Shown here: one piece after another, positions 16,880 through 47,203 of the stretch
Layout: the number at the start of each line of letters is the position of its first letter
How positions within the stretch are numbered: position 1 is the stretch's first letter
From: Thiomargarita sp.
GTDB lineage: Bacteria; Pseudomonadota; Gammaproteobacteria; Beggiatoales; Beggiatoaceae
Direction: 5' to 3'
NCBI GenBank assembly: GCA_020721045.1
Contig: DYNN01000002.1
Location: 15,567 to 79,566 of the forward strand
Length of the DNA stretch: 64,000 bases
Notes under the pieces: generated by a model
Seen by the model: the letters and a program-made list of their open reading frames with translations, nothing else
What the model was told of the DNA's origin: nothing
The model's database searches: none
Made by a program: the position numbers and the translations under genes

Positions 16880-18070
16880 TTATTTTGTTCGCAACCAATT
16901 CTCTGGATTGATTGGAATACCTTGGTGACGAATTTCAAAATAAAGCGCAGTTTGTTCTTTACCGCCGCTGTCACCCACAGTGGCGATAGTATCACCGGTT
17001 TCAACCCAAGTTCCTGTTTTTACTAATAAACTTTGATTATGCGCATATAGACTCATATAACCTTTGTCATGATCAATAATAATTAATAAGCCAAAATTAC
17101 GAAACCATTCAGCAAATGCCACACGCCCAGCTGCAATCACATGCACTTTTTCGCCGCGTTTCGCTTCAATCAGCACGCCTTGCCACTTTAACTGTTCTAT
17201 CAAAGGTTCACCAAATTTTTTGGCTACTTGACCTTGCGTAGGATAAGCTAATTGTCCTTTCAATTTCCAAAATTCTTGACTATTTGGATGAGGAATTATT
17301 TTTAAAGTGGGTTCTAAACCGCCTAATAGGGCTTCCAATTGTCGTTTATCTTCTTGTAATCGCTTTAATTCTTTATCTTGATCAGTCAAAGTTTTTTTCA
17401 ATCGGACCAAAATAACTTGTCGTTCATCATAACTAACATCTAAATCTTGTTTATGTTTATTTTGATAAGAGAGTAATTTATTTAAATGAGCGGTTTCTTG
17501 CGTGATTGTGACGGTTAGTGTTTGTAAATTAAGAATTGAATCTTTAACTAATTGAATTTTATTAGCTCGTGCCTTATTAATATAATCATAATAGGTCAAA
17601 ATACGCCCAATCATTGTCGGGTCTTGTTGATTTAACCATAATTTTAAATAATCTTGTCGTCCAATTAAATAAGCAGAATTAATTTGTTGTGCTAAAATGC
17701 GGCGTTGTTTTTCTAATGAAATCTGTTCGTTATCTTTCTGTTTTTGTAAATTCTTCAACGTATTTTCTTTATCCTCCAATTCTTCGTTAATAATCCCTAA
17801 TTGTTCTGCCACTTGACCAATATCTTCCTCACTCATTTTTAATTGCTGTTGTAGCTGATCATATTCAGTCTGTGTGGAATTCATTGCGGTTTGTAATTCT
17901 CGAATTCGTAACTCCAACTGTGCTAACTGTTCAGGCGTGACAGAAATAGTGGTTGCCATATCTGTTGCTATACTATTGGATATTAATAGAAAATAAATGA
18001 ATAAATACGAAAATCGTTGCATATATGTAGTGATTTGCATGATTGATAGAGAAAAAATATGATAGATCAT
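16880..18070 (-). CDS. M23/LytM-domain protein with N-terminal coiled coils (EnvC-like murein hydrolase activator)
   Basis: Signal/TM at the N-terminus, ~230 aa of heptad-rich Q/E/K/L sequence, then a C-terminal M23 domain (IIIDHDKGYMSLYAHNQSL, GDTIATVGDSGG, LYFEIRHQGIPINP). Confidence 0.8.
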   Translation of the reverse strand: MIYHIFSLSIMQITTYMQRFSYLFIYFLLISNSIATDMATTISVTPEQLAQLELRIRELQTAMNSTQTEYDQLQQQLKMSEEDIGQVAEQLGIINEELEDKENTLKNLQKQKDNEQISLEKQRRILAQQINSAYLIGRQDYLKLWLNQQDPTMIGRILTYYDYINKARANKIQLVKDSILNLQTLTVTITQETAHLNKLLSYQNKHKQDLDVSYDERQVILVRLKKTLTDQDKELKRLQEDKRQLEALLGGLEPTLKIIPHPNSQEFWKLKGQLAYPTQGQVAKKFGEPLIEQLKWQGVLIEAKRGEKVHVIAAGRVAFAEWFRNFGLLIIIDHDKGYMSLYAHNQSLLVKTGTWVETGDTIATVGDSGGKEQTALYFEIRHQGIPINPENWLRTK

Positions 18071-28242: not shown

Positions 28243-30282
28243 ATGCAATTTTTTAAACGATACAATTATATCATGTTGACAACTCTGATTGCCGTATTTA
28301 GTGTGGCATTTGGGTTATTTTATTTACAATATAGTACACAATATCAATATGAAATCAGTGAATTACAAGATGTATTTGAAGAAAAGCTGTTTGACATTGA
28401 ACATGTGGCTCAAACTACTGAAGAACAAGTACAGGCGATGAAATATAAGGCTGAAACTTATTTAGTCACGCATTTACAGCCACAAAATTCTTTACTTTTT
28501 AATCAATTACAACAAGTTAATGAATCTTCCTATAATTTGGATAATGTACAATCGCCTTTTGATGAAACGATGATTGGTAATTTAACCGGTCAAGGTCGAT
28601 TGGATAAGCGTGATGCTAATTTTTATCGAGAACTTGATATGGCATTAGATTTAAGTCCATTATTTACAATTGCTCAACGTAATGTTCCAAATGCCACATG
28701 GATTTATTACACTTCTGCTAATTATTTTATGTCGTTTTACCCGTGGATAGAATCTACTGAATTTAGTTTTGCTGAAGAGTTTTATAAATATGAATTTTAT
28801 ACGTTAGGATTACCAAATAATAATCTTAGCGGTACAATTTTTTGGACCAATCCCTACATTGATGCAGCGGGGAAAGGGCTCATGGTGACTTGTGCTATAC
28901 CAATTTATGAAAATAAACGTTTCCTTGGCACAGTAGCCATCAACCTTACTTTGACAACACTCAATCAAATGATACAAGATTTTCCCTACCCCACTGAAAA
29001 TTTGTTACTAGTCAATGATAATTATCAATTATTAGCGCATAGCAAGATGTTAAGTTCGCAAGCCGTACAATCGGCTAAAATCGGTTTTCCAACAGACATG
29101 CAGGCACAATGGCAGACTTTATTTCAGCACCCAGAAGGAGAAATTGTTAAAATAGGCGATTATCTAGCGATTTACAAAAAATTGTCTAATGTGCCTTGGA
29201 AATTAATTTTATTATTACCTAACCAATTGATTGTAAAAAATGTTATCTATAAAACGAGTTGGGGATTTATTATTTTATTGCCTTGCTTATTAGTCGTGTT
29301 GCTCATTACTTATCTTGTGACGCATCAAGAATTTATCCGTCCAGCGGGTTATTTAATTGAACATATTGAAAATGAGAGTAAAGTCATATCAAAACTAATC
29401 CCTAAAGTACCCACTGATTGGCATATATGGTTTACAACAGTGTCTAATATTTTTGCTCAAAATCGTGATTTATTCGCAGAACTCAAAGAATATTCTGCTT
29501 CTTTAGAAGAAAAAGTGCAGGAGCGAACACGAGATATTATTTTTAAAAACAAAACCTTAGTTTTGCTCAATCAAGAAAAAAACGAATTTTTAGGCATTGT
29601 TGCCCATGATTTAAAAAATCCATTGTCCGCCATTTTGAATCTTGCGCAAATGATCCAAGAAGCAAAAGGAGATTTAAGTCAAGAAGAATTATTGGAATAC
29701 GCTGATATTATTGAAATGAGCGCGCATAATATGTTCCAATTAATTACTAATTTGTTGGATGTTAACGCAATTGAATCTGGAAAAATGAATGTTAATCTGG
29801 AAATTATTGACATTTCTTCTATTATTAAAAGAACGATTGCTAATTATGCTGAACAAGCGAAACGTAAAAATATTACCATACATTTAAAATATTTAGGTGA
29901 AAAGACCGGCTCTTATTGGGCTTTTGTTGATATAAATCTTACCCAACAAATTTTGGACAATGTCGTTTCTAATGCCATTAAATACTCACCGCAAGGTAAA
30001 AATGTTTGCGTTCGATTGACTGATCTTGAAAAACAGGTACGTTGTGAAATTGAAGATGAAGGACCAGGATTAAGCGCGGATGAACAGAAAAAATTGTTTG
30101 GCAAATTCACCCGACTCAGCCCTAAACCTACAGGTGGTGAGCATTCAACCGGTTTAGGATTATTTATTGTTAAAAAATTGGTCGATACGCTTGCAGGTCA
30201 AGTTTGGTGTCAAAGTGAAGTGGGTAAAGGAACTCGTTTTATTATCGAATTTCCTAAAAATAGCATTAACAACATGAGCTAA
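28243..30282 (+). CDS. sensor histidine kinase with periplasmic double-Cache-like domain
   Basis: TM, ~300-aa extracytoplasmic domain (WIYYTSANYFMSFYPW, WTNPYIDAAGKGLMVTCAIPIY), second TM, then HisKA H-box FLGIVAHDLKNPLS and the HATPase boxes DNVVSNAIKYSP, EDEGPGL, GGEHSTGLGLFIVKKL. Confidence 0.8.
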   Translation: MQFFKRYNYIMLTTLIAVFSVAFGLFYLQYSTQYQYEISELQDVFEEKLFDIEHVAQTTEEQVQAMKYKAETYLVTHLQPQNSLLFNQLQQVNESSYNLDNVQSPFDETMIGNLTGQGRLDKRDANFYRELDMALDLSPLFTIAQRNVPNATWIYYTSANYFMSFYPWIESTEFSFAEEFYKYEFYTLGLPNNNLSGTIFWTNPYIDAAGKGLMVTCAIPIYENKRFLGTVAINLTLTTLNQMIQDFPYPTENLLLVNDNYQLLAHSKMLSSQAVQSAKIGFPTDMQAQWQTLFQHPEGEIVKIGDYLAIYKKLSNVPWKLILLLPNQLIVKNVIYKTSWGFIILLPCLLVVLLITYLVTHQEFIRPAGYLIEHIENESKVISKLIPKVPTDWHIWFTTVSNIFAQNRDLFAELKEYSASLEEKVQERTRDIIFKNKTLVLLNQEKNEFLGIVAHDLKNPLSAILNLAQMIQEAKGDLSQEELLEYADIIEMSAHNMFQLITNLLDVNAIESGKMNVNLEIIDISSIIKRTIANYAEQAKRKNITIHLKYLGEKTGSYWAFVDINLTQQILDNVVSNAIKYSPQGKNVCVRLTDLEKQVRCEIEDEGPGLSADEQKKLFGKFTRLSPKPTGGEHSTGLGLFIVKKLVDTLAGQVWCQSEVGKGTRFIIEFPKNSINNMS

Positions 30283-30286
30283 CAAC

Positions 30287-32263
30287 ATGCAATTTTTTAA
30301 ACGTTATAACTACATTGTTTTAGTTACTTTTTTCACTATTCTGACCATTATGGGCGGCTTGCTGTATATACAGTATCGAACAAATTATAATCATAAAATC
30401 AATCAATTAAAAAATGCTATTGATGAACGTTTGCTCAGTTTAGAATACGCATTACACATCGCAAAGTATCAAGTAGAAGGGATGAAAATTAAGGCAGAAT
30501 CCTATTTAGCAACGCATCCTGCACCTATAGGTGTTGCCCTATATTCGCAGTTACAGCCTATTTCAACACAATCTTATAGTTTGGATAATATAAAACCCCC
30601 TTTTACTGATAAAAATATAGGTAATTTAACCGGAATCGGGACATTGGCTAATCAATCCAATGATTTTTATCGTGAAATAGAAATGGCACTTGACTTAAAT
30701 CCACTTTTTTGCATTGCTACTCATAATATTCCCAATGCGGTATGGCTTTACTATACTTCTGCTAATCATTTTATAACACTCTATCCATGGGTTCATTCCA
30801 AAGATTTCATGTTTGACGATGAGTTTTACAAACACGAATTTTATGAATTAGGCTTACCTGAAAAAAATCCACAACGAGAAACTTTTTGGACACACGCTTA
30901 TATCGATGAAGCTGGTAAAGGATTAATGGTAACATGTGCGGCGCCCGTTTATGAAAATGATCGCTTTCGTGGTACGGTGGCATTGGATATCACACTGGAT
31001 ATTTTAAATCAATTTGTGAAAAACTTTATTTATCCAACCGAAAACTTATTTATTATCAATAATGATGAACAATTACTGGCACATAAAATACTGGTTGACG
31101 CAAAAAACACCGAAATCAACACAGCAGAAAATGCCTTTCCCGAAACGATGCGCACGCGCTGGAAAAGCCTATTTGAACACCCAAAAGATGAAATCATCGC
31201 CCTAGATGATTATTTGTTTATGTATAAAAATTTACCTCATATTCCTTGGAAATTGATTTTTTGGATACCTAAACGTACAATTGCACAAGAAGCCCTTTAT
31301 AGCATCAGTTGGAATATCGGCATTTTCTTTCCTAGTCTATTGATAATATTATTTATTGTAAATTATGTTACCCGCCGCACCTTTGTCAAACCCGCTGAAT
31401 TATTAGTAGAACATATTGAAAAAGAAAACCAAGGGCTAGGTGCACCCATACCGAATGTACCAGAAATGTGGCAAAAGTGGTTTAAAGAAGTTTCTCGCAT
31501 TTTTAATGAAAACCGTCATTTATTCATTGAGTTGAAAAATTATTCGTCCTCACTTATCGCATTGAATCAAGAAAAAAATGAATTTTTAGGCATTGTTGCA
31601 CACGATTTAAAGAACCCATTATCAAGTATCTTGGGATTTGCGGAATTGATACAAGAAGCAGATGACGGATTAACTAAAGCAGAAATCATTGAATATGCAG
31701 GACTTATTCAAATTAGTTCACGCAATATGTTTCAATTAATTACCAATTTACTTGATGTGAGTGCGATTGAATCTGGAAAAATTAACGTTAGCTTACAAAA
31801 TATTAATATTTCTCCTATTTTACATAGTATTATCACTGAATATACTGAACGAGCAAAACGTAAAAATATCACTCTTTATGCTGATGATATTACAATAAGT
31901 CACTACGCATTTGCCGATGTCCATTTGACGCAGCAAATTTTGGATAATTTAATTTCTAATGCGATTAAATATTCACCGCAAGGCAAAAATGTCCATATTC
32001 GACTGATTGAATTTAAAGAACAAATTCGTTGTGAAATTCAAGATGAAGGACAAGGATTAACCCTAGATGAACAGAAAAAATTATTTGGCAAATTTACCCG
32101 ACTCAGCACCAAACCCACAGCCGGTGAACATTCAACTGGCTTAGGCTTATTTATTGTCAAAAAATTGATTACTGCAATGAACGGTCAAATCTGGTGTGAA
32201 AGTGAACTTGGTAAAGGCTCGGTCTTTATTGCCACCTTACCTAAACAAATAGTAAACTTATAA
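30287..32263 (+). CDS. sensor histidine kinase, tandem paralog of the preceding gene
   Basis: Same architecture and the same N-terminus (MQFFKRYNYI) as 28243-30282. It starts 4 nt after that gene's stop. About 18 aa shorter in the linker before the H-box. Confidence 0.8.
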   Translation: MQFFKRYNYIVLVTFFTILTIMGGLLYIQYRTNYNHKINQLKNAIDERLLSLEYALHIAKYQVEGMKIKAESYLATHPAPIGVALYSQLQPISTQSYSLDNIKPPFTDKNIGNLTGIGTLANQSNDFYREIEMALDLNPLFCIATHNIPNAVWLYYTSANHFITLYPWVHSKDFMFDDEFYKHEFYELGLPEKNPQRETFWTHAYIDEAGKGLMVTCAAPVYENDRFRGTVALDITLDILNQFVKNFIYPTENLFIINNDEQLLAHKILVDAKNTEINTAENAFPETMRTRWKSLFEHPKDEIIALDDYLFMYKNLPHIPWKLIFWIPKRTIAQEALYSISWNIGIFFPSLLIILFIVNYVTRRTFVKPAELLVEHIEKENQGLGAPIPNVPEMWQKWFKEVSRIFNENRHLFIELKNYSSSLIALNQEKNEFLGIVAHDLKNPLSSILGFAELIQEADDGLTKAEIIEYAGLIQISSRNMFQLITNLLDVSAIESGKINVSLQNINISPILHSIITEYTERAKRKNITLYADDITISHYAFADVHLTQQILDNLISNAIKYSPQGKNVHIRLIEFKEQIRCEIQDEGQGLTLDEQKKLFGKFTRLSTKPTAGEHSTGLGLFIVKKLITAMNGQIWCESELGKGSVFIATLPKQIVNL

Positions 32264-37814: not shown

Positions 37815-39299
37815 ATGAATCTTGAACAGTTTAATCAATTAGTCAACGCTGGATATAATCGCATTCCCGTTTTGCGCGAAGTATTGGCAGACTTAGATAC
37901 ACCACTCAGTGCTTATTTAAAATTAGCCAAAGGTGCTTATTCCTACTTATTTGAATCTGTCCAAGGTGGCGAAAAATGGGGACGTTACTCCATTATCGGT
38001 TTACCTGCAAAAACTGTCGTAAAAATTCACGATTATACGGTTACTATCACACAACATAATGAAAATATTGAACAATTTAAAGTCGCCGATCCACTACATT
38101 GGATCAGTGAATTTCAACAAAATTTTCGCGTGCCAAAATTACCTCATTTACCCCGTTTTACTGGCGGTTTAGTGGGTTATTTTGGCTATGATACGGTGCA
38201 ATATATTGAATCTCGCTTAGGCAAGACAACGCGCACCAATCCAGTTGCCACGCCTGATATTTTATTGATGGTATCCGATGAAGTTGTGGTTTTTGATAAT
38301 TTAAAAGGTAAATTGTACCTTATCGTTCACGCTTCGACTGAGCAAGAAAGTGCATTTTCTCAAGCAGAACAACGTTTAGATCAATTAGTTACTCAACTGC
38401 GTGAAACCTCACTACCACTATTTGATACCACGCCAGCAGAACCGATTTTGGAAACCGATTTTATTTCGGGATTTACTCGCCAAGGCTTTGAAAATGCAGT
38501 TGAACAAGCGAAAAAATATATTGTTGCGGGTGATGTCATGCAAGTTGTGCTATCGCAACGTTTGTCTATTCCTTGTCAAGTACCGCCTTTAAATATTTAT
38601 CGTGCCTTACGGTGTCTAAATCCGTCACCTTACATGTATTATTTGGATTTAGCTGATTTTCATATCGTTGGTTCTTCACCTGAAATTTTAGTTCGTTTGG
38701 AAGATCAACAAATTACTGTACGCCCAATTGCTGGCACTCGTCCACGCGGGAATAATGAAGCCGAAGATTTGGCTTTAGAACAAGAATTGCTTGCCGATCC
38801 CAAAGAAATTGCAGAACACGTGATGTTGATTGATTTAGGTAGAAATGACGTGGGGCGTGTGGCAAAAATTGGAACCGTACAACTCACTGAAAATATGGTG
38901 ATTGAACGTTATTCCCATGTTATGCATATTGTTTCTAATGTAACGGGAGAATTAAAACCGGAATTAGATGCAATTGATGTATTACGCGCCACTTTTCCAG
39001 CTGGCACTTTAAGTGGTGCGCCTAAAATACGAGCAATGGAAATTATTGAACAATATGAACCAATTAAACGTGGTATTTATGGCGGTGCCGTAGGTTACAT
39101 TGGTTGGTACGGTGAAATGGATACTGCTATAGCCATTCGTACAGCAGTGATTAAAGATGATACGCTACACATTCAAGTGGGTGCTGGCATTGTCGCAGAT
39201 TCTATTCCGGAAAAAGAATGGGAAGAAACGATGAACAAGGGACGCGCAATGTTTCGTGCTGTCGCGATGGCAACCGCCGGTTTAACACGGTGTGGATAA
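37815..39299 (+). CDS. trpE: anthranilate synthase component I
   Basis: [27 protein letters not shown] and [24 protein letters not shown]. No trpG/D follows it. Confidence 0.9.
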
Positions 39300-39358
39300 A
39301 TTTTAATCTCAGCCTATTGATTTTTTAGCCGGAATGTTTTTACCGAAATGTAACGTAT

Positions 39359-39605
39359 TCAATTAAATAGAAACTACTATTGTTTAGCACATTCTGATTA
39401 CACTCATGCAAATTCAAACGGGCTTATTTTCTAACGAAGAAGAGACATTACAAAATGCAACAGCTATTTTGCAGCAATATTATGAAAAAGATAGTGATGT
39501 TCCTATTCAACTTTATGAACAATTAATTCGTGATTATAAAAAATTGCTCAAACAAACTAAAATTTTAGTTAAAATGAGTGATAAACAACAAAATCGCCTG
39601 AGTGA
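39359..39605 (+). repeat. 247-nt diverged 5' block of the kinase cassette, copy 1
   Basis: Aligns without gaps to 42291-42537 with about 13-14 substitutions (~94-95 % identity). Covers a 47-nt leader plus the first ~66 codons. Confidence 0.8.
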
Positions 39606-40359
39606 AGCTGAAGCTAATAAAATTCGTCTTTTACAAGAACAAGAGATTAAAAACGTTGAATTAATTAAACTTAATCAGGAAAAAAACGAATTTTTGGGCA
39701 TTGTTGCGCATGACTTGAAAAATCCATTATCCGCCATTTTAGGTATGGCAGAAATGTTGCAGGAATCGGCTGAATTGATAACGATCAAAGAAATCATAGA
39801 ATGCTCTAACATCGTTCAACGCAGTGCGCAAATGATGTTCCAATTGATTACTAACTTACTAGATGTAAACTCGATTGAATCTAATGGGATAAATTTACAT
39901 TTAGAGAAAACTGATCTTTTGCCAATTTTAAGTGATGTTGTAAATAATTATAAAGAACGAGCAAAAACAAAGAATATTACCTTGATATTTCAATTGGATA
40001 CTAATAAATATTTCGCCATTATTGATCAAAATATTATTCAACAAGTTTTAGATAATTTGATTTCTAATGCAATTAAGTATTCTCCTTATAATAAACAAGT
40101 TCGTATTCGTATTTTTAATACTAACGCTTGTATTCGTTGTGAAATTGAAGATGAAGGTATGGGCTTAAGTTTGTCAGATCAACAAAAATTATTTGGCAAA
40201 TTCACTCGATTGACGACAAAACCAACTGGTGGAGAACATTCTACCGGCTTAGGCTTATTTATTGTTAAAAAATTAGTAAATATGATGCAAGGCAAGGTGT
40301 GGTGTGAAAGTGAGTTAGGTAAAGGGGCAAATTTTATCATTGAATTACCTTCTGGCTAA
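39406..40359 (+). CDS. cytoplasmic histidine kinase, PAS-less copy of 42338-43693
   Basis: 317 aa. The N-terminal 66 aa are ~90 % identical and the C-terminal 250 aa are 100 % identical to the 451-aa paralog. HisKA/HATPase boxes are intact. Confidence 0.8.
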   Translation: MQIQTGLFSNEEETLQNATAILQQYYEKDSDVPIQLYEQLIRDYKKLLKQTKILVKMSDKQQNRLSEAEANKIRLLQEQEIKNVELIKLNQEKNEFLGIVAHDLKNPLSAILGMAEMLQESAELITIKEIIECSNIVQRSAQMMFQLITNLLDVNSIESNGINLHLEKTDLLPILSDVVNNYKERAKTKNITLIFQLDTNKYFAIIDQNIIQQVLDNLISNAIKYSPYNKQVRIRIFNTNACIRCEIEDEGMGLSLSDQQKLFGKFTRLTTKPTGGEHSTGLGLFIVKKLVNMMQGKVWCESELGKGANFIIELPSG

Positions 40360-40376
40360 ATAAAAACGACGGCGGG
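39607..40376 (+). repeat. 770-nt direct repeat, copy 1 (3' part of the kinase gene plus 17 nt downstream)
   Basis: By base-by-base reading it is identical to 42941-43710. Confidence 0.85.
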
Positions 40377-40434
40377 CTACAATCAGAATGTTTTTATAAT
40401 TAGTTGAAGGTAATTTTCCAAATGAGATTACATC

Positions 40435-42009
40435 TTACGAGTTTAAAGATTTTTCATTAAATTCAACAGTAAATACTGATCCCTTATTCAATTCGCTTTT
40501 GCAACTGACTTTCCCGTTCATCATTTCCATTAATTTTTTAACGGAAAATAGCCCCAATCCAGTTGAATGTTCATCGCCGGTGGGCTTTGGAGTTAACCGA
40601 CTGAATTTAAGGAATAATTTTTTTTGATCTTCAGGACTCAACCCTAATCCTTCGTCTTGAACTTCGCACTTGACGACATTTTGACTGTGTTTTAATCGTA
40701 TGTGAACATTTTTCCCCTGCGGAGAGTATTTGATGGCATTAGAAATAAGATTATCTAATACTTGGTAAACACTACCTTTATCTGCTAAAACAACAAAATG
40801 TTCTTCATCAGGATTAAAATGCAAATGAATGTTTTTGTTTTTAGCTCGCTCCAAATATTCCTTAACCAATTGTTGAGTAATAGGAAATAAGTCAACCTCT
40901 TCTAAAGTAATATTAATTTTTCCAGATTCAATGGCATTAACATCGAGCAAATTAACAATGAGTTGTAACATTTTATGTGAACTGCTTTGAATGACTTTAT
41001 TAAATTCAATGAGTTCTTCTTTAGATAAATTATCAAAAGATTCTAAAATTTCTTCAGAAAACCCCAAAATAGCTGACAACGGGTTTTTCAAATCATGAGC
41101 TACAATTCCTAAGAATTCATTTTTTTCTTGGTTTAGTTTCACCAAAGCGGTATTTTTTGTTTCTAGTATATTGAAAGCTAAACGTAATTGTGCAGCCATC
41201 TCATTGAAAATTAACGTTAATTTACCTAGTTCGTCTTGTTGTACCGGCGATTCCATTTGTTTCCAGTCGCCTTTTGCCAAACCTTGAGCAAAGAGTTGCA
41301 ATCTATTGATAGGGATAATAACGGAACGAACGACGATAAATCCAAAGAGCCAAGTCAGAAAAAATGCTGCGACCACCACGGTTGAATTAATGATAAATGC
41401 TTCTCTTGTTTTCATACCAGCGATGGCGTGGTTTTCAGAAACTTCTTTTGTAGCAATTTGAATGGCTTGCTCAATCGTTGAGAAGACTAGGTTTTCGGCT
41501 TCTTCTAATGTTTCTTTTATTTCTAGGAAATCAGGTTCCTCTTTTTCTAAATCCATTTCAATGAATTTGTAACTACTATTTTTCAATATATTTACAGAGT
41601 CAACCAGTCGTTCTCCAATTAATGATTCTTCTGAATTAGCAACTAATTCTTTATATTTATTTAAAAAATTAGCAATGATTTGTTCTGAAGTATGAAACTC
41701 TTCTGTTTCCTCTTCAATTTGTTCTTTAGATTCACTATAACTTTCAGTTTTATAGGGTTCAGTGGCGGTTTCTTTTAAGTGGTGAGACACTTTTATATTA
41801 ATTAGCCCGATACTCAAGGCTTCCATCTCTATTCTCGAAGCAGTTTGTTTAATCTGGTAAAGAATTTCGAGCTTGGGAATGCTTCCATCAATTACGTTTC
41901 CAAAGCTGTAATTAATTGTTGTGGTAGTGTAAATGCACACCATTCCCACAATCACTATGAGCAAAGTAATGATGGAAAAAGCAGAAGTCAATTTTGTTTT
42001 TAAATTCAT
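40435..42009 (-). CDS. membrane sensor histidine kinase (helical extracytoplasmic domain, HAMP)
   Basis: Two TM helices flank a ~190-aa helical domain. HAMP-like IIPINRLQLFAQGLAKGDW. The same LNQEKNEFLGIVAHDLKNPLS transmitter module as the neighbouring kinases. Confidence 0.8.
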   Translation of the reverse strand: MNLKTKLTSAFSIITLLIVIVGMVCIYTTTTINYSFGNVIDGSIPKLEILYQIKQTASRIEMEALSIGLINIKVSHHLKETATEPYKTESYSESKEQIEEETEEFHTSEQIIANFLNKYKELVANSEESLIGERLVDSVNILKNSSYKFIEMDLEKEEPDFLEIKETLEEAENLVFSTIEQAIQIATKEVSENHAIAGMKTREAFIINSTVVVAAFFLTWLFGFIVVRSVIIPINRLQLFAQGLAKGDWKQMESPVQQDELGKLTLIFNEMAAQLRLAFNILETKNTALVKLNQEKNEFLGIVAHDLKNPLSAILGFSEEILESFDNLSKEELIEFNKVIQSSSHKMLQLIVNLLDVNAIESGKINITLEEVDLFPITQQLVKEYLERAKNKNIHLHFNPDEEHFVVLADKGSVYQVLDNLISNAIKYSPQGKNVHIRLKHSQNVVKCEVQDEGLGLSPEDQKKLFLKFSRLTPKPTGDEHSTGLGLFSVKKLMEMMNGKVSCKSELNKGSVFTVEFNEKSLNS

Positions 42010-42180
42010 TTTGATGTTCCTTTTAAAAAATGGTTTTAAACTTATATATACTTTAAGCAGTTAGCGTTCTTAGCTTTCCGATAATAGTAAGACTAAAACA
42101 ACAAATAATTTAATATAGCATGAAAGATGCAATTTTGAGTGCATTTTCTATTGCTTTACGATAACGGCTTGTTAAAAGCG

Positions 42181-42296
42181 AGAAAGTATATCTGATTGCT
42201 AGAAAATAATGGTGACATTGTCAAGGTGTGGAGACTATAATTAGCTATTTTTTGTCAATAATCATATTTTTATTGAAGGCTAACCTTAAGTCAATT
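42181..42296 (+). repeat. ~115-nt copy of the MCP leader placed upstream of the PAS kinase
   Basis: About 90 % identical to 43709-43824. It has AAG (42288-42290) where the MCP gene has its ATG (43816-43818). Confidence 0.75.
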
Positions 42297-42537
42297 AAAT
42301 AAAAACAACTATTGTTTAGCACATTCTGATTACACTCATGCAAATTCAAACAGGTTTATTTTTTAACGAAGAAGATACATTACAAGATGCAACAGCTATT
42401 TTGCAGCAATATTATGAAAAAGATAGCGATATTCCTATTCAACTTTATGAACAATTAGTTCGTGATTATAAAAAATTACTCAAACAAACTAAAATTTTAG
42501 TTAAAATGAGTGATAAACAACAAAATCGTCTTAGTGA
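42291..42537 (+). repeat. 247-nt diverged 5' block of the kinase cassette, copy 2
   Basis: Counterpart of 39359-39605. Confidence 0.8.
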
Positions 42538-43693
42538 TAAAGTGGAAGAAGTTGAACGTGTTAGCGAAAAAAAAGTCAGCCAATTTTTAGAAGCCGTACC
42601 TATCAGCATTCTTGTCATTGATTCTCAAGGCGCAGTTTATTATGCCAATCAACAAGCACAACAAATATTAGGTAAAGATACTACCACAGCCACCTCGCTC
42701 TACCAACTACAAGAAGTCTGTCCCGCTTATCTAGCAGGCACTGATGTACCCTATCCGCATCAACAACATCCAATTATCTGTGCTTTAGCCGGTGAGACGA
42801 TGGTTGCTGTTGATAATATGGAAATTCATCTACACAATCACATTATTCCCATTGAAGTATGGGGCACACCCATTTTTGATGAAAATAATCGAGTCAATTA
42901 TGCAATTGCAGCTTTTCATGATATTACTGAGAGAAAACAAGCTGAAGCTAATAAAATTCGTCTTTTACAAGAACAAGAGATTAAAAACGTTGAATTAATT
43001 AAACTTAATCAGGAAAAAAACGAATTTTTGGGCATTGTTGCGCATGACTTGAAAAATCCATTATCCGCCATTTTAGGTATGGCAGAAATGTTGCAGGAAT
43101 CGGCTGAATTGATAACGATCAAAGAAATCATAGAATGCTCTAACATCGTTCAACGCAGTGCGCAAATGATGTTCCAATTGATTACTAACTTACTAGATGT
43201 AAACTCGATTGAATCTAATGGGATAAATTTACATTTAGAGAAAACTGATCTTTTGCCAATTTTAAGTGATGTTGTAAATAATTATAAAGAACGAGCAAAA
43301 ACAAAGAATATTACCTTGATATTTCAATTGGATACTAATAAATATTTCGCCATTATTGATCAAAATATTATTCAACAAGTTTTAGATAATTTGATTTCTA
43401 ATGCAATTAAGTATTCTCCTTATAATAAACAAGTTCGTATTCGTATTTTTAATACTAACGCTTGTATTCGTTGTGAAATTGAAGATGAAGGTATGGGCTT
43501 AAGTTTGTCAGATCAACAAAAATTATTTGGCAAATTCACTCGATTGACGACAAAACCAACTGGTGGAGAACATTCTACCGGCTTAGGCTTATTTATTGTT
43601 AAAAAATTAGTAAATATGATGCAAGGCAAGGTGTGGTGTGAAAGTGAGTTAGGTAAAGGGGCAAATTTTATCATTGAATTACCTTCTGGCTAA
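42338..43693 (+). CDS. cytoplasmic PAS-domain histidine kinase
   Basis: 451 aa. PAS-like segment at about aa 67-200 (FLEAVPISILVIDSQGAVYYANQQAQQILG ... NYAIAAFHDITERK), followed by HisKA/HATPase. Confidence 0.85.
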   Translation: MQIQTGLFFNEEDTLQDATAILQQYYEKDSDIPIQLYEQLVRDYKKLLKQTKILVKMSDKQQNRLSDKVEEVERVSEKKVSQFLEAVPISILVIDSQGAVYYANQQAQQILGKDTTTATSLYQLQEVCPAYLAGTDVPYPHQQHPIICALAGETMVAVDNMEIHLHNHIIPIEVWGTPIFDENNRVNYAIAAFHDITERKQAEANKIRLLQEQEIKNVELIKLNQEKNEFLGIVAHDLKNPLSAILGMAEMLQESAELITIKEIIECSNIVQRSAQMMFQLITNLLDVNSIESNGINLHLEKTDLLPILSDVVNNYKERAKTKNITLIFQLDTNKYFAIIDQNIIQQVLDNLISNAIKYSPYNKQVRIRIFNTNACIRCEIEDEGMGLSLSDQQKLFGKFTRLTTKPTGGEHSTGLGLFIVKKLVNMMQGKVWCESELGKGANFIIELPSG

Positions 43694-43710
43694 ATAAAAA
43701 CGACGGCGGG
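42941..43710 (+). repeat. 770-nt direct repeat, copy 2
   Basis: By base-by-base reading it is identical to 39607-40376. Confidence 0.85.
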
Positions 43711-43824
43711 AAAGTATGTCTGATTGCTAGAAAATAATGGTGATATTGTCAAGGTGTGGTAGACTATAACCAACTATTTTTGTCAATAATCATCTTTTTA
43801 TTGAAGGCTAACCTTATGTCAATA
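43709..43824 (+). repeat. ~115-nt MCP leader and first codons (the functional copy)
   Basis: Counterpart of 42181-42296. Confidence 0.75.
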
Positions 43825-45480
43825 AAGAAATTATTTTTATTTGCTTTCTCTATATCTATTTTATTATTGCTCATATTAGGCTTTTTAACCTTTAAACTCT
43901 ATCAAAATCAACTTTTGTTAAATGATAGCCAAGAGAATCGCTATCAGTCCTATTTAGCGGCGACAGAATTACGCCAAAGTTCTGATGATTTAACCAAATT
44001 CGCGCGAACTTATGTGGTAACAGCCAATGCCAATTATGAAAAAATCTATTGGGATATATTAGCTATTCGTAATGGTACTAAACCGCGTCCGGAACGATAT
44101 GAACATATTTATTGGGATTTTTTTGCTTATTTAGGTGAAAAACCACGCCCCAATGGTGAAATGATTGCCCTGAAACAAAAAATGCGAAGTTTAGGTTTCA
44201 CCGATGCGGAGTTTGCAAAATTAACTGAAGCTCAGAACAATTCTAATGAACTTGTGAGTATAGAAGCCATTGCTATGAATGCGGTTAAAGGCTTATATCG
44301 AGATCATAACGGAAAATTTACAATAAAAGGGGAAGCTAAACCAGCGTTGGCTCAAGAACTTATGCATAGCAAAGAGTATCATAAACAAAAATATCTCATC
44401 ATGAAACCCATTGATGATTTTTTTGTTTTACTAAGCGAACGTACTCAAAATAGTGTAGTGTATTATCAAAAATTAAATCAAATTTATGTTTGGTCAATTA
44501 TTGCTTTAATTTCATTGATTATTATATTTTCTGCAATTTTTTATTACCGTATTACTCGTCATATCATGGCACAATTGGGTGGTGAGCCTAATGTGGTTAT
44601 CAAGATCATTCATCAGTTGGCGGCTGGTAATTTATCACAGTCATTCGATACCCAAAAAACATTAACCGGTCTTTTTTTAACTGTATATCAGATGCAACAA
44701 CAATGGAAAGAGATAGTGACTGCCATCACCCAAACGGCAGCAGTGCTCAATACAACTGCTCAAGAAATTGCACAAGGAAATATGAATCTGAATCAACGGG
44801 TTGAAGAACAAGCCGCTTCGTTAGAAGAAACTGCAGCTAGCATGAATGAAATGACCAGTATCGTACAGCAAAGTGCGAATAATACGCGATTGGCAATTCA
44901 ATTAGCAGAAAATGCCCAACAACATGCGCATAAAGGCGGTGAAGTGGTTAATGCGATGATCGTTGCTATGGATGAAATTAATCATAGTAGCAAAAAAATT
45001 GCTGATATTATTAGTATAATTGATCAAATTGCGTTTCAAACCAATTTATTAGCACTCAATGCAGCTGTTGAAGCGGCACGTGCTGGTGAACAGGGTAGGG
45101 GGTTTGCTGTAGTTGCAGCAGAGGTACGTAATTTAGCACAACGCAGTGGTATTGCCGCTAAAGAAATTAAGGAGTTAATCCAAGAAAGTGTCGTCAGAGT
45201 CGATGAGGGAACTGTATTGGCAAATACTTCAGGAAAAACATTACAAGAAATCATTGCCTCAGTTAAGCAAGTAGATGATATAATTAGAGAAATTTCTACT
45301 GCCAGTTATCAACAAGCGGCGGGTATTCAACAAGTACATCGCGCAATCACGCATATGGATAGTATGACTCAACAAAATGCTGCTTTAGTAGAACAAACAG
45401 CATCTGCCAGCGAAGTCATGGGGCAACAGGTAGCAAATCTCGCTAATCAAATTGCTTTTTTTAATAATATCCAACACTAA
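43816..45480 (+). CDS. methyl-accepting chemotaxis protein
   Basis: The ATG at 43816 (MSIKKLFLFAF..., TM) is preferred over the upstream GTG at 43756. Helical periplasmic domain, second TM, HAMP, then the highly conserved signalling hairpin (IDQIAFQTNLLALNAAVEAARAGEQGRGFAVVAAEVRNLAQRS). Confidence 0.85.
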   Translation: MSIKKLFLFAFSISILLLLILGFLTFKLYQNQLLLNDSQENRYQSYLAATELRQSSDDLTKFARTYVVTANANYEKIYWDILAIRNGTKPRPERYEHIYWDFFAYLGEKPRPNGEMIALKQKMRSLGFTDAEFAKLTEAQNNSNELVSIEAIAMNAVKGLYRDHNGKFTIKGEAKPALAQELMHSKEYHKQKYLIMKPIDDFFVLLSERTQNSVVYYQKLNQIYVWSIIALISLIIIFSAIFYYRITRHIMAQLGGEPNVVIKIIHQLAAGNLSQSFDTQKTLTGLFLTVYQMQQQWKEIVTAITQTAAVLNTTAQEIAQGNMNLNQRVEEQAASLEETAASMNEMTSIVQQSANNTRLAIQLAENAQQHAHKGGEVVNAMIVAMDEINHSSKKIADIISIIDQIAFQTNLLALNAAVEAARAGEQGRGFAVVAAEVRNLAQRSGIAAKEIKELIQESVVRVDEGTVLANTSGKTLQEIIASVKQVDDIIREISTASYQQAAGIQQVHRAITHMDSMTQQNAALVEQTASASEVMGQQVANLANQIAFFNNIQH

Positions 45481-45523: not shown

Positions 45524-47203
45524 TTATATGTTACCCGCAATTTTTTTAGTAATGACCCATTGCTGCGCAATTGAGAGTATGTTGTTAACCACCCAATAGA
45601 GTACCAAGCCCGATGGGAAAAACGCAAAAAATACTGTAAATATAAAAGGAAGTATCAACATGACTTTTTGTTGTACTGGATCAATTGGCATTGGATTTAA
45701 TCGATGTTGTAATAACATGGTTGCGCCCATGACCAAAGGTAAAATAAAATAAGGGTCTGGCGTTGATAAATCATTAAGCCATAGTATAAAACTAGCCTGT
45801 CTCAATTCCACACTTTCCAATAGCACCCAATATAATGCAATAAATACGGGGATTTGTACCAAAATTGGTAAGCAACCGCCCAATGGATTCACTTTTTCCT
45901 TTTTGTACATTTCTAACATGGCTTGATTTAAGCGTGCCTTGTCACTGCCAAAACGTTCTTTCAATTGTACTAAACGTGGTTGTAACCGTCGCATATTTGC
46001 CATAGAGCGATAGCTAGTTGCCGATAATTGGAAAAAAGCCAGTTTAATCAAAATAGTTAGAATAACAATAGACCAACCCCAATTTTTTACTAAGTCATGA
46101 ATGGCTTCTAAACCCCAAAATAGAGGTTGTGCAATAAACCATAACCAACCGTAATCGACGGTTAAATCTAATCCGGGCGATAACTCTGCAAGTTTGTCTT
46201 GAACTTTTGGACCAACGTAGAATGAAAAATCAAAGCTTTCTTGGCTATGTGGTGCTACAGTTTGTTCAGGTCCATACATGCCAATGACGTAGCGAGTGCC
46301 ATCGGGGATAAAATTGCTGTAATATTTGAATGCTTTATCTTTATTTGGAATCCAAGCCACCACAAAATAGTGTTGTAACATCGCTGCCCAACCACCTTTC
46401 CAATCTTCACGTTTTTCGTGCTCTAACTTACCGTCTTTAATGTTATCAAAGGTAATTTTTTCATACAAATTGTCAGGGCTGGAAAGAGCTGCACCGGTGT
46501 AAGTGTAGATGAAACTATTACCTGATTTGATGCTAGGTGTACGTTGTAGTTGTCCATATAAATGCCCTTTCCATGCTTGCTCGGCATTATTTTGCACAAT
46601 ATATTTTACATCAATAATGTAACTATCACGATGAAAAGTATAAATTTTATTGATATTTACATGTTCATTTTGCCAAGTCAGCGTCACTGCTAATTCATTG
46701 GCATCTTGCTTCATGCGATAGTCAGTATTCGCAGTTTGATAAATTGCTTGGTGCGTAGGCGCAATTTCTTTAGGCAATAAACCAGATTGGGCAATGAAAA
46801 AATTGGGTAGGGTATCATCCATCAAGTGAAAAGGCTTATCCAATTGGTCAATGGCAATCGGAAATTTAATTAATTCAACATGACGTAAATCGCCACCAAC
46901 AGTATCGATTTCTATTTTAAATACATCGGTTTCTACATGAATTCGGGTATGTGTAGGCACTAAGCGTTGCACTTGAGTCACAGGTAATTCAGGCAATGCA
47001 GACATTGTACTATTGTTTGCTACTTCATCCGTATTAGGTAATAAATCAATCGCCGAAGAAGGTGTTGTGCTAGGTATGTCAGTCACTGCTGTTGGTGTGC
47101 TTGTGATCGATGGTTTGGGCCCATAATCAACTTGCCAAGCTTGATACAACAATAGCAAAATGAAAAACCATCCTACAATGAGAATGAGTCTAAAGTTATC
47201 CAT
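45524..47203 (-). CDS. yidC: membrane protein insertase YidC
   Basis: 559 aa. N-terminal TM, large periplasmic domain, and a C-terminal core (NPLGGCLPILVQIPVFIALYWVL). Conserved position after yidD-rnpA-rpmH. Confidence 0.9.
   Translation of the reverse strand: MDNFRLILIVGWFFILLLLYQAWQVDYGPKPSITSTPTAVTDIPSTTPSSAIDLLPNTDEVANNSTMSALPELPVTQVQRLVPTHTRIHVETDVFKIEIDTVGGDLRHVELIKFPIAIDQLDKPFHLMDDTLPNFFIAQSGLLPKEIAPTHQAIYQTANTDYRMKQDANELAVTLTWQNEHVNINKIYTFHRDSYIIDVKYIVQNNAEQAWKGHLYGQLQRTPSIKSGNSFIYTYTGAALSSPDNLYEKITFDNIKDGKLEHEKREDWKGGWAAMLQHYFVVAWIPNKDKAFKYYSNFIPDGTRYVIGMYGPEQTVAPHSQESFDFSFYVGPKVQDKLAELSPGLDLTVDYGWLWFIAQPLFWGLEAIHDLVKNWGWSIVILTILIKLAFFQLSATSYRSMANMRRLQPRLVQLKERFGSDKARLNQAMLEMYKKEKVNPLGGCLPILVQIPVFIALYWVLLESVELRQASFILWLNDLSTPDPYFILPLVMGATMLLQHRLNPMPIDPVQQKVMLILPFIFTVFFAFFPSGLVLYWVVNNILSIAQQWVITKKIAGNI

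Follow-up and report, generated by a model that had tools for sequence, protein, structure and literature searches.

How does a bacterium come to carry what looks like one sensor kinase gene twice, once with and once without a PAS input domain, with hundreds of identical nucleotides at the 3′ ends of the two copies? The locus that raises this question lies in a 64,000-nucleotide stretch (hereafter the window) of contig DYNN01000002.1 from a Beggiatoaceae bacterium (Thiomargarita sp.) of the Frasassi cave biofilms, represented by a short-read metagenome bin of 253 contigs. Kinase 1 (HK1; 317 amino acids, 39406–40359, forward strand) combines an N-terminal helical module with HisKA and HATPase_c domains and has no PAS domain; kinase 2 (HK2; 451 amino acids, 42338–43693, forward strand) has the same N-terminal module followed by PAS, HisKA and HATPase_c (Pfam). 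We consider it somewhat probable that these are two real paralogues that arose by duplication, followed by loss of the PAS domain and patchy gene conversion, with an identity that assembly has overstated.

By repeat search and direct string comparison, positions 39605–40376 (R1) and 42939–43710 (R2), both on the forward strand, are identical over 772 nt (100%), covering the final 250 codons, the stop codon and 17 nt 3′ of it. An earlier note made from the sequence of the window had described identical blocks of 770 nt; they proved to be 2 bases longer, and pairwise comparison of the two copies leaves this identity standing within the window. The note's estimate of 13–14 differences between the 5′ blocks narrowed to exactly 13 of 247 sites in an alignment of B1 (39359–39605, forward strand; 47 nt of leader and HK1 codons 1–67) with B2 (42291–42537, forward strand), with 6 synonymous mismatches, 6 non-synonymous ones (codon 67 holds two) and 2 upstream. 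Weaker similarity between the copies reaches back to around 39334. The contrast between 5′ and 3′ parts (13/247 versus 0/772) has a Fisher p value of 8e-9. The copies are spaced 3,334 nt apart in the 3′ repeat and 2,932 nt apart in the 5′ block, which gives an in-frame indel of 402 nt, or 134 codons, and the PAS-encoding segment missing from copy 1 (net 402 nt) lies at 42538–42938 on the forward strand. At the junction, the protein reads NRLS-E-AEANK in copy 1 and NRLS-DKVEE...ERKQ-AEANK in copy 2, and the DNA reads AGT GA/A GCT GAA in copy 1 and AGT GA/T AAA ... AAA CA/A GCT GAA in copy 2, with 1–2 nt of microhomology at most. Spacings and junctions agree with the indel as the note had read it, and so does the opposite-strand kinase gene at 40435–42009 that it had placed between the direct repeats.

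The two copies stand in different surroundings. Upstream of B1 is trpE, encoding anthranilate synthase component I (37815–39299, forward strand; Pfam Chorismate_bind and Anth_synt_I_N). R1 is followed by a unique 1.8-kb segment, U (40377–42177), which contains a third kinase gene with its own upstream region, and then by X′ (42178–42298, forward strand), a copy of a chemoreceptor leader that adjoins B2. R2 is followed by X″ (43706–43826, forward strand), the leader and start codon (ATG at 43816) belonging to the chemoreceptor itself, a methyl-accepting chemotaxis protein (MCP) of 554 amino acids from that ATG (43816–45480, forward strand; Pfam MCPsignal, E = 4.5e-53), which is also called as 554 amino acids in other assemblies. 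The downstream flank is yidC (45524–47203, reverse strand), then yidD–rnpA–rpmH and then dnaA.

A single kinase gene with a second copy produced by mis-assembly would be in keeping with a contig drawn from a short-read bin of 253 contigs and with a repeat longer than the reads. Other assemblies of the same Frasassi population were retrieved by exact-protein look-up. The Frasassi Fissure Spring biofilm metagenomes were sequenced on Illumina HiSeq 2000 and assembled with SOAPdenovo at k up to 101, contigs shorter than 1,800 bp passing through Newbler and then minimus2, which merged on 80-nt overlaps (PMC4288042). In the JGI FS08-3 assembly, contig _1000428 (L046) runs from parC through trpE and B1 and then 352 nt into R1, and contig _1000252 (L040) runs from the last 105 nt of R1 through U, X′, B2, PAS, R2, X″, MCP and yidC onward, 100% identical to the window. 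In GCA_973786405.1, a contig of 3,475 nt (L041) corresponds to window positions 40236–43710 and closes on itself with a 141-nt terminal overlap, forming a graph cycle, and another (L048) starts 141 nt inside R and continues into X″ and MCP. Two Logan unitigs (L042 and L049) break 30 nt inside the end of R, and L049 links that end to X″ and MCP.

All four junctions (B1 to R, PAS to R, R to U and R to X″) are present in independent contigs, so that the only linear walk through all of them is the order seen in the window and an artefact built on one copy is excluded. B1 and B2 have 13 differing sites and unlike flanks; one independent contig runs without a break from trpE through the PAS-less junction, and another joins the PAS-bearing copy to kinase 3 and MCP; and R exits into both U and X″ in three data sets. 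Assembly duplication, which the earlier note had kept as the trivial alternative, is therefore rejected, and a single-gene artefact is extremely improbable. As read from these assemblies, the organism would carry two real paralogous kinase genes, and the actual assembly problem appears to be the merging of near-identical copies rather than false duplication.

Evidence of such merging comes from the same contigs. Contig _1000428 is identical to the window over the 6.9 kb that precede R1, including all of B1, and then has 10 differences at R offsets 104–247 (39708–39851, forward strand), in a patch encoding the C-terminal half of DHp helix 1, the loop and helix 2. The R2 of contig _1000252, also from FS08-3, shows no difference from that of the window. 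Eight of the 10 changes are non-synonymous (G113S, K128E, C133Y, V137I, R139C, A141V, M143I and T149I) and 2 are synonymous. The variant has the state of the orthologues at residues 133, 137 and 143, the window at 113, 139, 141 and 149, and this mixture argues for two diverged paralogues rather than errors. The genome has no further paralogue above 74%, and exact look-up of the partial variant protein in the protein collection gave no match. The contig ends 105 nt past the last variant site, around one k-mer length, which is where a copy-specific arm of the graph would rejoin shared sequence. The loop contig from GCA_973786405.1 enters R from PAS (the context of R2) and leaves it into U (the context of R1). 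It departs from the window in just two places, R offsets 515 and 554, each a synonymous T>C change, and matches it throughout the 2.7 kb that U, X′, B2 and PAS make up; these two single-nucleotide polymorphisms (SNPs) are probably also specific to R1. We think it reasonably probable that the true R1 and R2 differ at around 12 of 772 sites, in bubbles that the assembler of the window merged; the repeat would then have been one collapsed node in the short-read assembly graph, and the 100% identity in the window is probably overstated. Single contigs of the bin contain further nearly perfect internal repeats of 570–770 nt (C156, C57, C242, C208 and C193; for example, C156 16348–17116 versus 17252–18020, 99.5%), and the same caveat of assembler collapse may apply to them.

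Counting the 12 suspected differences still leaves R with lower divergence than the 5′ block (p = 0.003). Those sites cluster strongly, with 10 in the 144 nt of the patch and 2 in the remaining 628 nt of R (p = 2e-6), and the clustering is seen in contig _1000428 alone (10/144 versus 0/208 around the patch, p = 1e-4). Divergence in the patch resembles that of the 5′ block (10/144 versus 13/247, p = 0.51) and of X (9/120). R is thus a tract more alike than the homologous sequence that adjoins it and a mosaic of converted and unconverted patches, which together argue for patchy conversion of the uninterrupted homologous segment. The converted tracts would be approximately 1–103, 248–514 and 555–772 of R, with the 402-nt heterology isolating the 5′ block. 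The earlier note had proposed recent conversion or a recent partial duplication of the 3′ part; homogenization relative to the 5′ block stands, and a single clean 772-nt tract probably does not, given the 10-SNP patch and two further SNPs in independent contigs, which point to patchy conversion combined with assembler collapse.

Both kinases have the sequence hallmarks of HisKA-type sensor histidine kinases (Pfam PF00512 and PF02518). HisKA is found with E = 8.5e-14 and 1.4e-13 and HATPase_c with E = 2.6e-26 (Pfam); H102, in the H-box HDLKNPL, is invariant across 39 homologues and aligns to the H-box of HK853; and the N, G1, F and G2 boxes of the ATP-binding site are conserved (DNLISNAIKYS, DEGMGL, KLFGKF and GGEHSTGLGL). 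The PAS domain of HK2 (residues 80–201) scores above the cut-off for PAS_4 (33.3 bits, cut-off 23.1), PAS_9 (32.6, 27) and PAS (27.8, 22.6). In an AlphaFold2 model of HK1 (mean pLDDT 84), a helix spanning residues 34–120 runs unbroken through junction residue 67 into DHp helix 1, and therefore deletion of the PAS domain leaves a plausible kinase, as judged from the model. The HK1 model matches HK853 by Foldseek (E = 1e-22), with further fold matches to YycG and others, and the sequence match to HK853 has E = 2.5e-34. HK1 and HK2 appear to be catalytically complete orphan kinases.

Full-length homologues with the N-terminal module, PAS and transmitter are widespread in Beggiatoaceae, the nearest being P0001 at 71% identity, with P0003, P0004, P0007, P0012 and others at 48–56%. 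A transmitter-domain tree places HK1 and HK2 with P0001 (support 100/99). Because PAS-bearing homologues are common and the tree pairs HK1 and HK2 with one of them, the PAS-bearing form appears to be ancestral and HK1 a PAS-deletion derivative. The earlier note had left open whether a whole domain was gained or lost at a linker; the widespread PAS-bearing architecture and the continuous modelled helix point to loss at a helical linker. Elsewhere, P0064 and P0103 also lack PAS but have different junctions, which indicates that such loss recurs. The N-terminal module (around 65 residues; residues 1–67, encoded at 39406–39606 and 42338–42538) has the pattern LFxNEE...YxxLxxDYKKLLKQTKLLVKMSDxQQ and is conserved in many Beggiatoaceae kinases; a Pfam scan of its 65 residues gave nothing above noise. 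In related proteins of 600 amino acids, a receiver domain stands N-terminal of PAS in place of the helical module.

The duplicated unit extends beyond the kinase gene. X′ and X″ differ by 9 mismatches and 2 gap columns over around 120 nt, and the MCP start codon, ATG in X″, is AAG in X′. X′ also holds the best promoter-like site given by a promoter scan, GTGACA-18-TATAAT (42212–42241), and HK2, which would read a PAS input, may be driven by this copy of the chemoreceptor promoter; HK1, lacking that input, may signal constitutively or receive input through its N-terminal module. The 3′ end of X′, GTCAAT, coincides with the start of the kinase 5′ block (TCAATTAAATA), and GTCAAT(T)A at the junction of X′ and B2 is common to the MCP start region and the kinase leader. 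We read the 8-nt overlap of X′ and B2 (GTCAATTA) as the junction of a tandem duplication. The units lie head to tail, share microhomology at their junction and have diverged to a like degree in their unconverted parts (X 7.5% versus B 5.3%, no difference, p = 0.48). U is bordered by GCGGG on the left and GCGAG on the right, and copy 2 has GCGGG once. The simplest history for this arrangement would be a single tandem duplication of a 1,528-nt unit comprising 5′ block, PAS, R and X. An origin in a mobile element was considered and rejected, with no transposase, no inverted ends and no further copies of the X, B or PAS segments elsewhere in the genome; an 11-nt inverted match between 40381–40406 and the kinase leader is at chance level.

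In the history that we propose, the ancestral order would have been trpE, a kinase gene (N-terminal module, PAS, DHp and CA), leader X, MCP and yidC. The 1,528-nt unit of kinase and X would have been duplicated in tandem by way of TCAAT, a microhomology that the kinase leader has in common with the region of the MCP start, and a 1.8-kb segment with the third kinase gene would then have inserted between the copies. The upstream copy would have lost exactly its PAS segment (402 nt), fusing the N-terminal helix to the signalling helix, and non-reciprocal recombination (gene conversion) would have homogenized most of the uninterrupted 772-nt transmitter segment, with the 402-nt heterology shielding the 5′ block.

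Several points weigh against this account as a whole. The variant R1 is visible in contig _1000428 for its first 352 nt only, and the assignment of the two synonymous SNPs to R1 follows from the path of one contig. Both the window and a contig from sample FS06-10 (L043) show B1 joined to R without the patch; that the genome of the window itself has the patch in R1 is most likely, and is read from other assemblies of the population. The patch could be the allele of a co-existing strain, which is opposed by zero other SNPs in 6.9 kb. No sister genome with a two-copy locus was found, with no member of the same genus among 30 relatives and a metagenome scan with the N-terminal module and PAS as query returning relatives of at most 51% identity; the order of insertion, deletion and conversion given above is accordingly one of several possible orders. 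Some of the same observations would fit a window that is right as printed, in which conversion was very recent and complete, leaving R1 and R2 with genuine 100% identity across all 772 nt, and the variants come from co-existing cells in which conversion is polymorphic. The patch-free R after B1 in two contigs speaks for this, as do samples that are natural populations, taken in 2006 and 2008 (PMC4288042). However, the variants lie solely inside R, with none in 6.9 kb upstream or in the 2.7 kb spanning U, X′, B2 and PAS, whereas a second strain should differ elsewhere too and would here have to lack any other SNP in around 9.6 kb. Short-read assemblers merge bubbles of this size, and by its size the FS06-10 contig falls among those that were merged anew on 80-nt overlaps. 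We regard true identity as unlikely, although it retains appreciable weight.

The FS06-10 contig also bears on the deletion or amplification between the repeats that could follow from their presence. Its 1,569 nt consist of window positions 39279–40376 fused exactly to 43711–44181, the predicted product of recombination between the repeats. If the repeats drove real, recurrent recombination, the 3,334-bp interval with kinase 3 and the PAS part of HK2 would be lost in some cells, joining kinase 1 to MCP, perhaps with an excised circle or an amplified array, as a structural polymorphism or switch; the GCA_973786405.1 contig, a 3,334-nt cycle with a 141-nt terminal overlap, would also fit. Yet a collapsed repeat node would be expected to yield both contigs as alternative walks, the 141-nt overlap resembles one of k-mer length, and the R-to-X″ exit is present in the same GCA assembly. 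The FS06-10 contig is shorter than 1,800 nt, from the Newbler and minimus2 merging step, and carries the R2-type patch, and is therefore probably chimeric, an assembler merge. No recombinase gene or specific site was found near the locus. Recurrent recombination is, in our judgement, very unlikely, and the account that we favour remains duplication, PAS loss and patchy conversion seen through a collapsed assembly.

The position of the unconverted patch in R1 invites a functional reading. G113 aligns to A271 of HK853, with the register of helix 2 ambiguous, and we take A271 to be among the residues changed in the rewired-interface structures 4JAS and 4JAV. The ratio pN/pS is around 1 in the patch (not significantly above 1) and 0.22 in the 5′ block. 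That selection keeps the diverged DHp patch apart is only a hypothesis. It would have conversion keep the transmitters near-identical while selection preserves a 48-codon DHp patch with 8 amino acid changes, including the one at the A271 equivalent, so that the PAS and PAS-less paralogues are insulated by differing regulator specificity or by not forming heterodimers. We hold this to be unlikely; if true, the locus would show, in a natural setting, insulation as it evolves in opposition to concerted evolution.

A sister species offers a partial view of the locus. The yidC on JGI contig L038 (3300033518) shares 98% identity at the protein level and 90% at the DNA level with that of the window; beside it are a single kinase gene, divergent, PAS-less and encoding 303 amino acids, a conserved region from kinase stop to X start, and the last ~60 nt of the MCP gene. 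From this gene order, the arrangement kinase–X–MCP–yidC would be ancestral. In this part of the contig (969–1135), the chemoreceptor gene of that species has been deleted down to these last ~60 nt, which, with the divergent kinase beside yidC, indicates fast gene turnover at an origin-proximal locus. Regions downstream of trpE in 8 more distant relatives contained none of the genes of the locus and showed no synteny. Kinase 3 (HKrev; 40435–42009, reverse strand; 524 amino acids) is a membrane-bound protein with a 4HB_MCP-like sensor, HAMP, HisKA and HATPase_c (Pfam). Its orthologue in the sister species (P0122, 81% identity) has different flanks and lies next to bioD-like genes, and one flank of that locus maps here to C194, a contig other than that of the window; this fits a move of kinase 3 into the locus. 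We looked for an empty site on C194 and rejected it, as the flank maps but the neighbours differ and no clean empty site is seen. A 39-nt stretch upstream of kinase 3 (42114–42152) recurs in the same genome on C174 (95%) and C133 (87%) and may be a small dispersed repeat or a shared regulatory site.

Two more kinase genes lie at 28243–32263 of the window, with transmitters 59–62% identical in protein to that of R; with kinases 1–3 they make five orphan kinases inside 15 kb. No receiver domain is encoded anywhere in the 64-kb window; the genome total is 103, the nearest on the contig being around 53 kb off. The neighbourhoods of orthologues elsewhere are not conserved and therefore give no functional clue, a SpoIIE-type phosphatase adjoining 2 of 3. 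On two Beggiatoaceae-like contigs (L029 and L031), orthologues with the N-terminal module and PAS directly adjoin SpoIIE/PP2C phosphatase genes, with SiaC- and DUF6272-type genes present as well on one of the two; as gene neighbours, these hint at a link to partner-switching modules.

Kinases 1 and 2 resemble Thermotoga maritima HK853 (PDB 2C2A and 3DGE) in their DHp and CA transmitter, the H-box HDLKNPL and the N, G1, F and G2 boxes. They differ from it in being only ~30% identical, in carrying a 65-residue helical input module that has no Pfam family, with or without PAS, and in being orphan genes with no receiver domain in the window. In FixL and the engineered YF1 (PDB 4GCZ), a PAS or LOV domain is joined to DHp by a coiled coil after a DIT motif. 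The PAS domain of HK2 likewise ends in DITERKQAE, followed by a helix into DHp, and YF1 and FixL chimeras were among the PDB matches. Unlike these proteins, HK2 has an extra N-terminal helical module and a natural PAS-less sister gene in which, according to the model, a deletion would have fused two helices.

Gene conversion and concerted evolution of bacterial paralogues are known from cases such as tufA and tufB. The locus shares with conversion of that type linked direct repeats and an uninterrupted tract far more alike than the adjoining homology, ending where homology breaks; here, however, the partners differ by a whole domain, the case is known from assemblies alone, and the assembler has probably produced some of the identity. 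Skerker, Capra, Podgornaia and Laub reportedly described how two-component paralogues become insulated after duplication through DHp specificity residues. By analogy, the changes in the variant R1 mostly alter amino acids in DHp helices 1 and 2, one at the equivalent of HK853 A271. In contrast to those cases, the helix-2 register is ambiguous, pN/pS is near 1, and insulation here is hypothetical.

Overall, a sensor kinase has here been duplicated within one lineage in an ordinary way, with one domain lost, a promoter captured and the copies evolving partly in concert. As a matter of method, perfect long repeats in contigs of short-read bins can arise from the merging of bubbles, which independent assemblies of the same samples can expose without the reads. 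For the two-component family, the locus exemplifies ordinary growth, in which local duplication is combined with loss of a sensor domain at a helical linker, use of a neighbour's promoter and partial homogenization. Should the spared patch in DHp prove to be both real and under selection, these two genes would offer a natural test case for kinases escaping cross-talk while recombination pulls them together.

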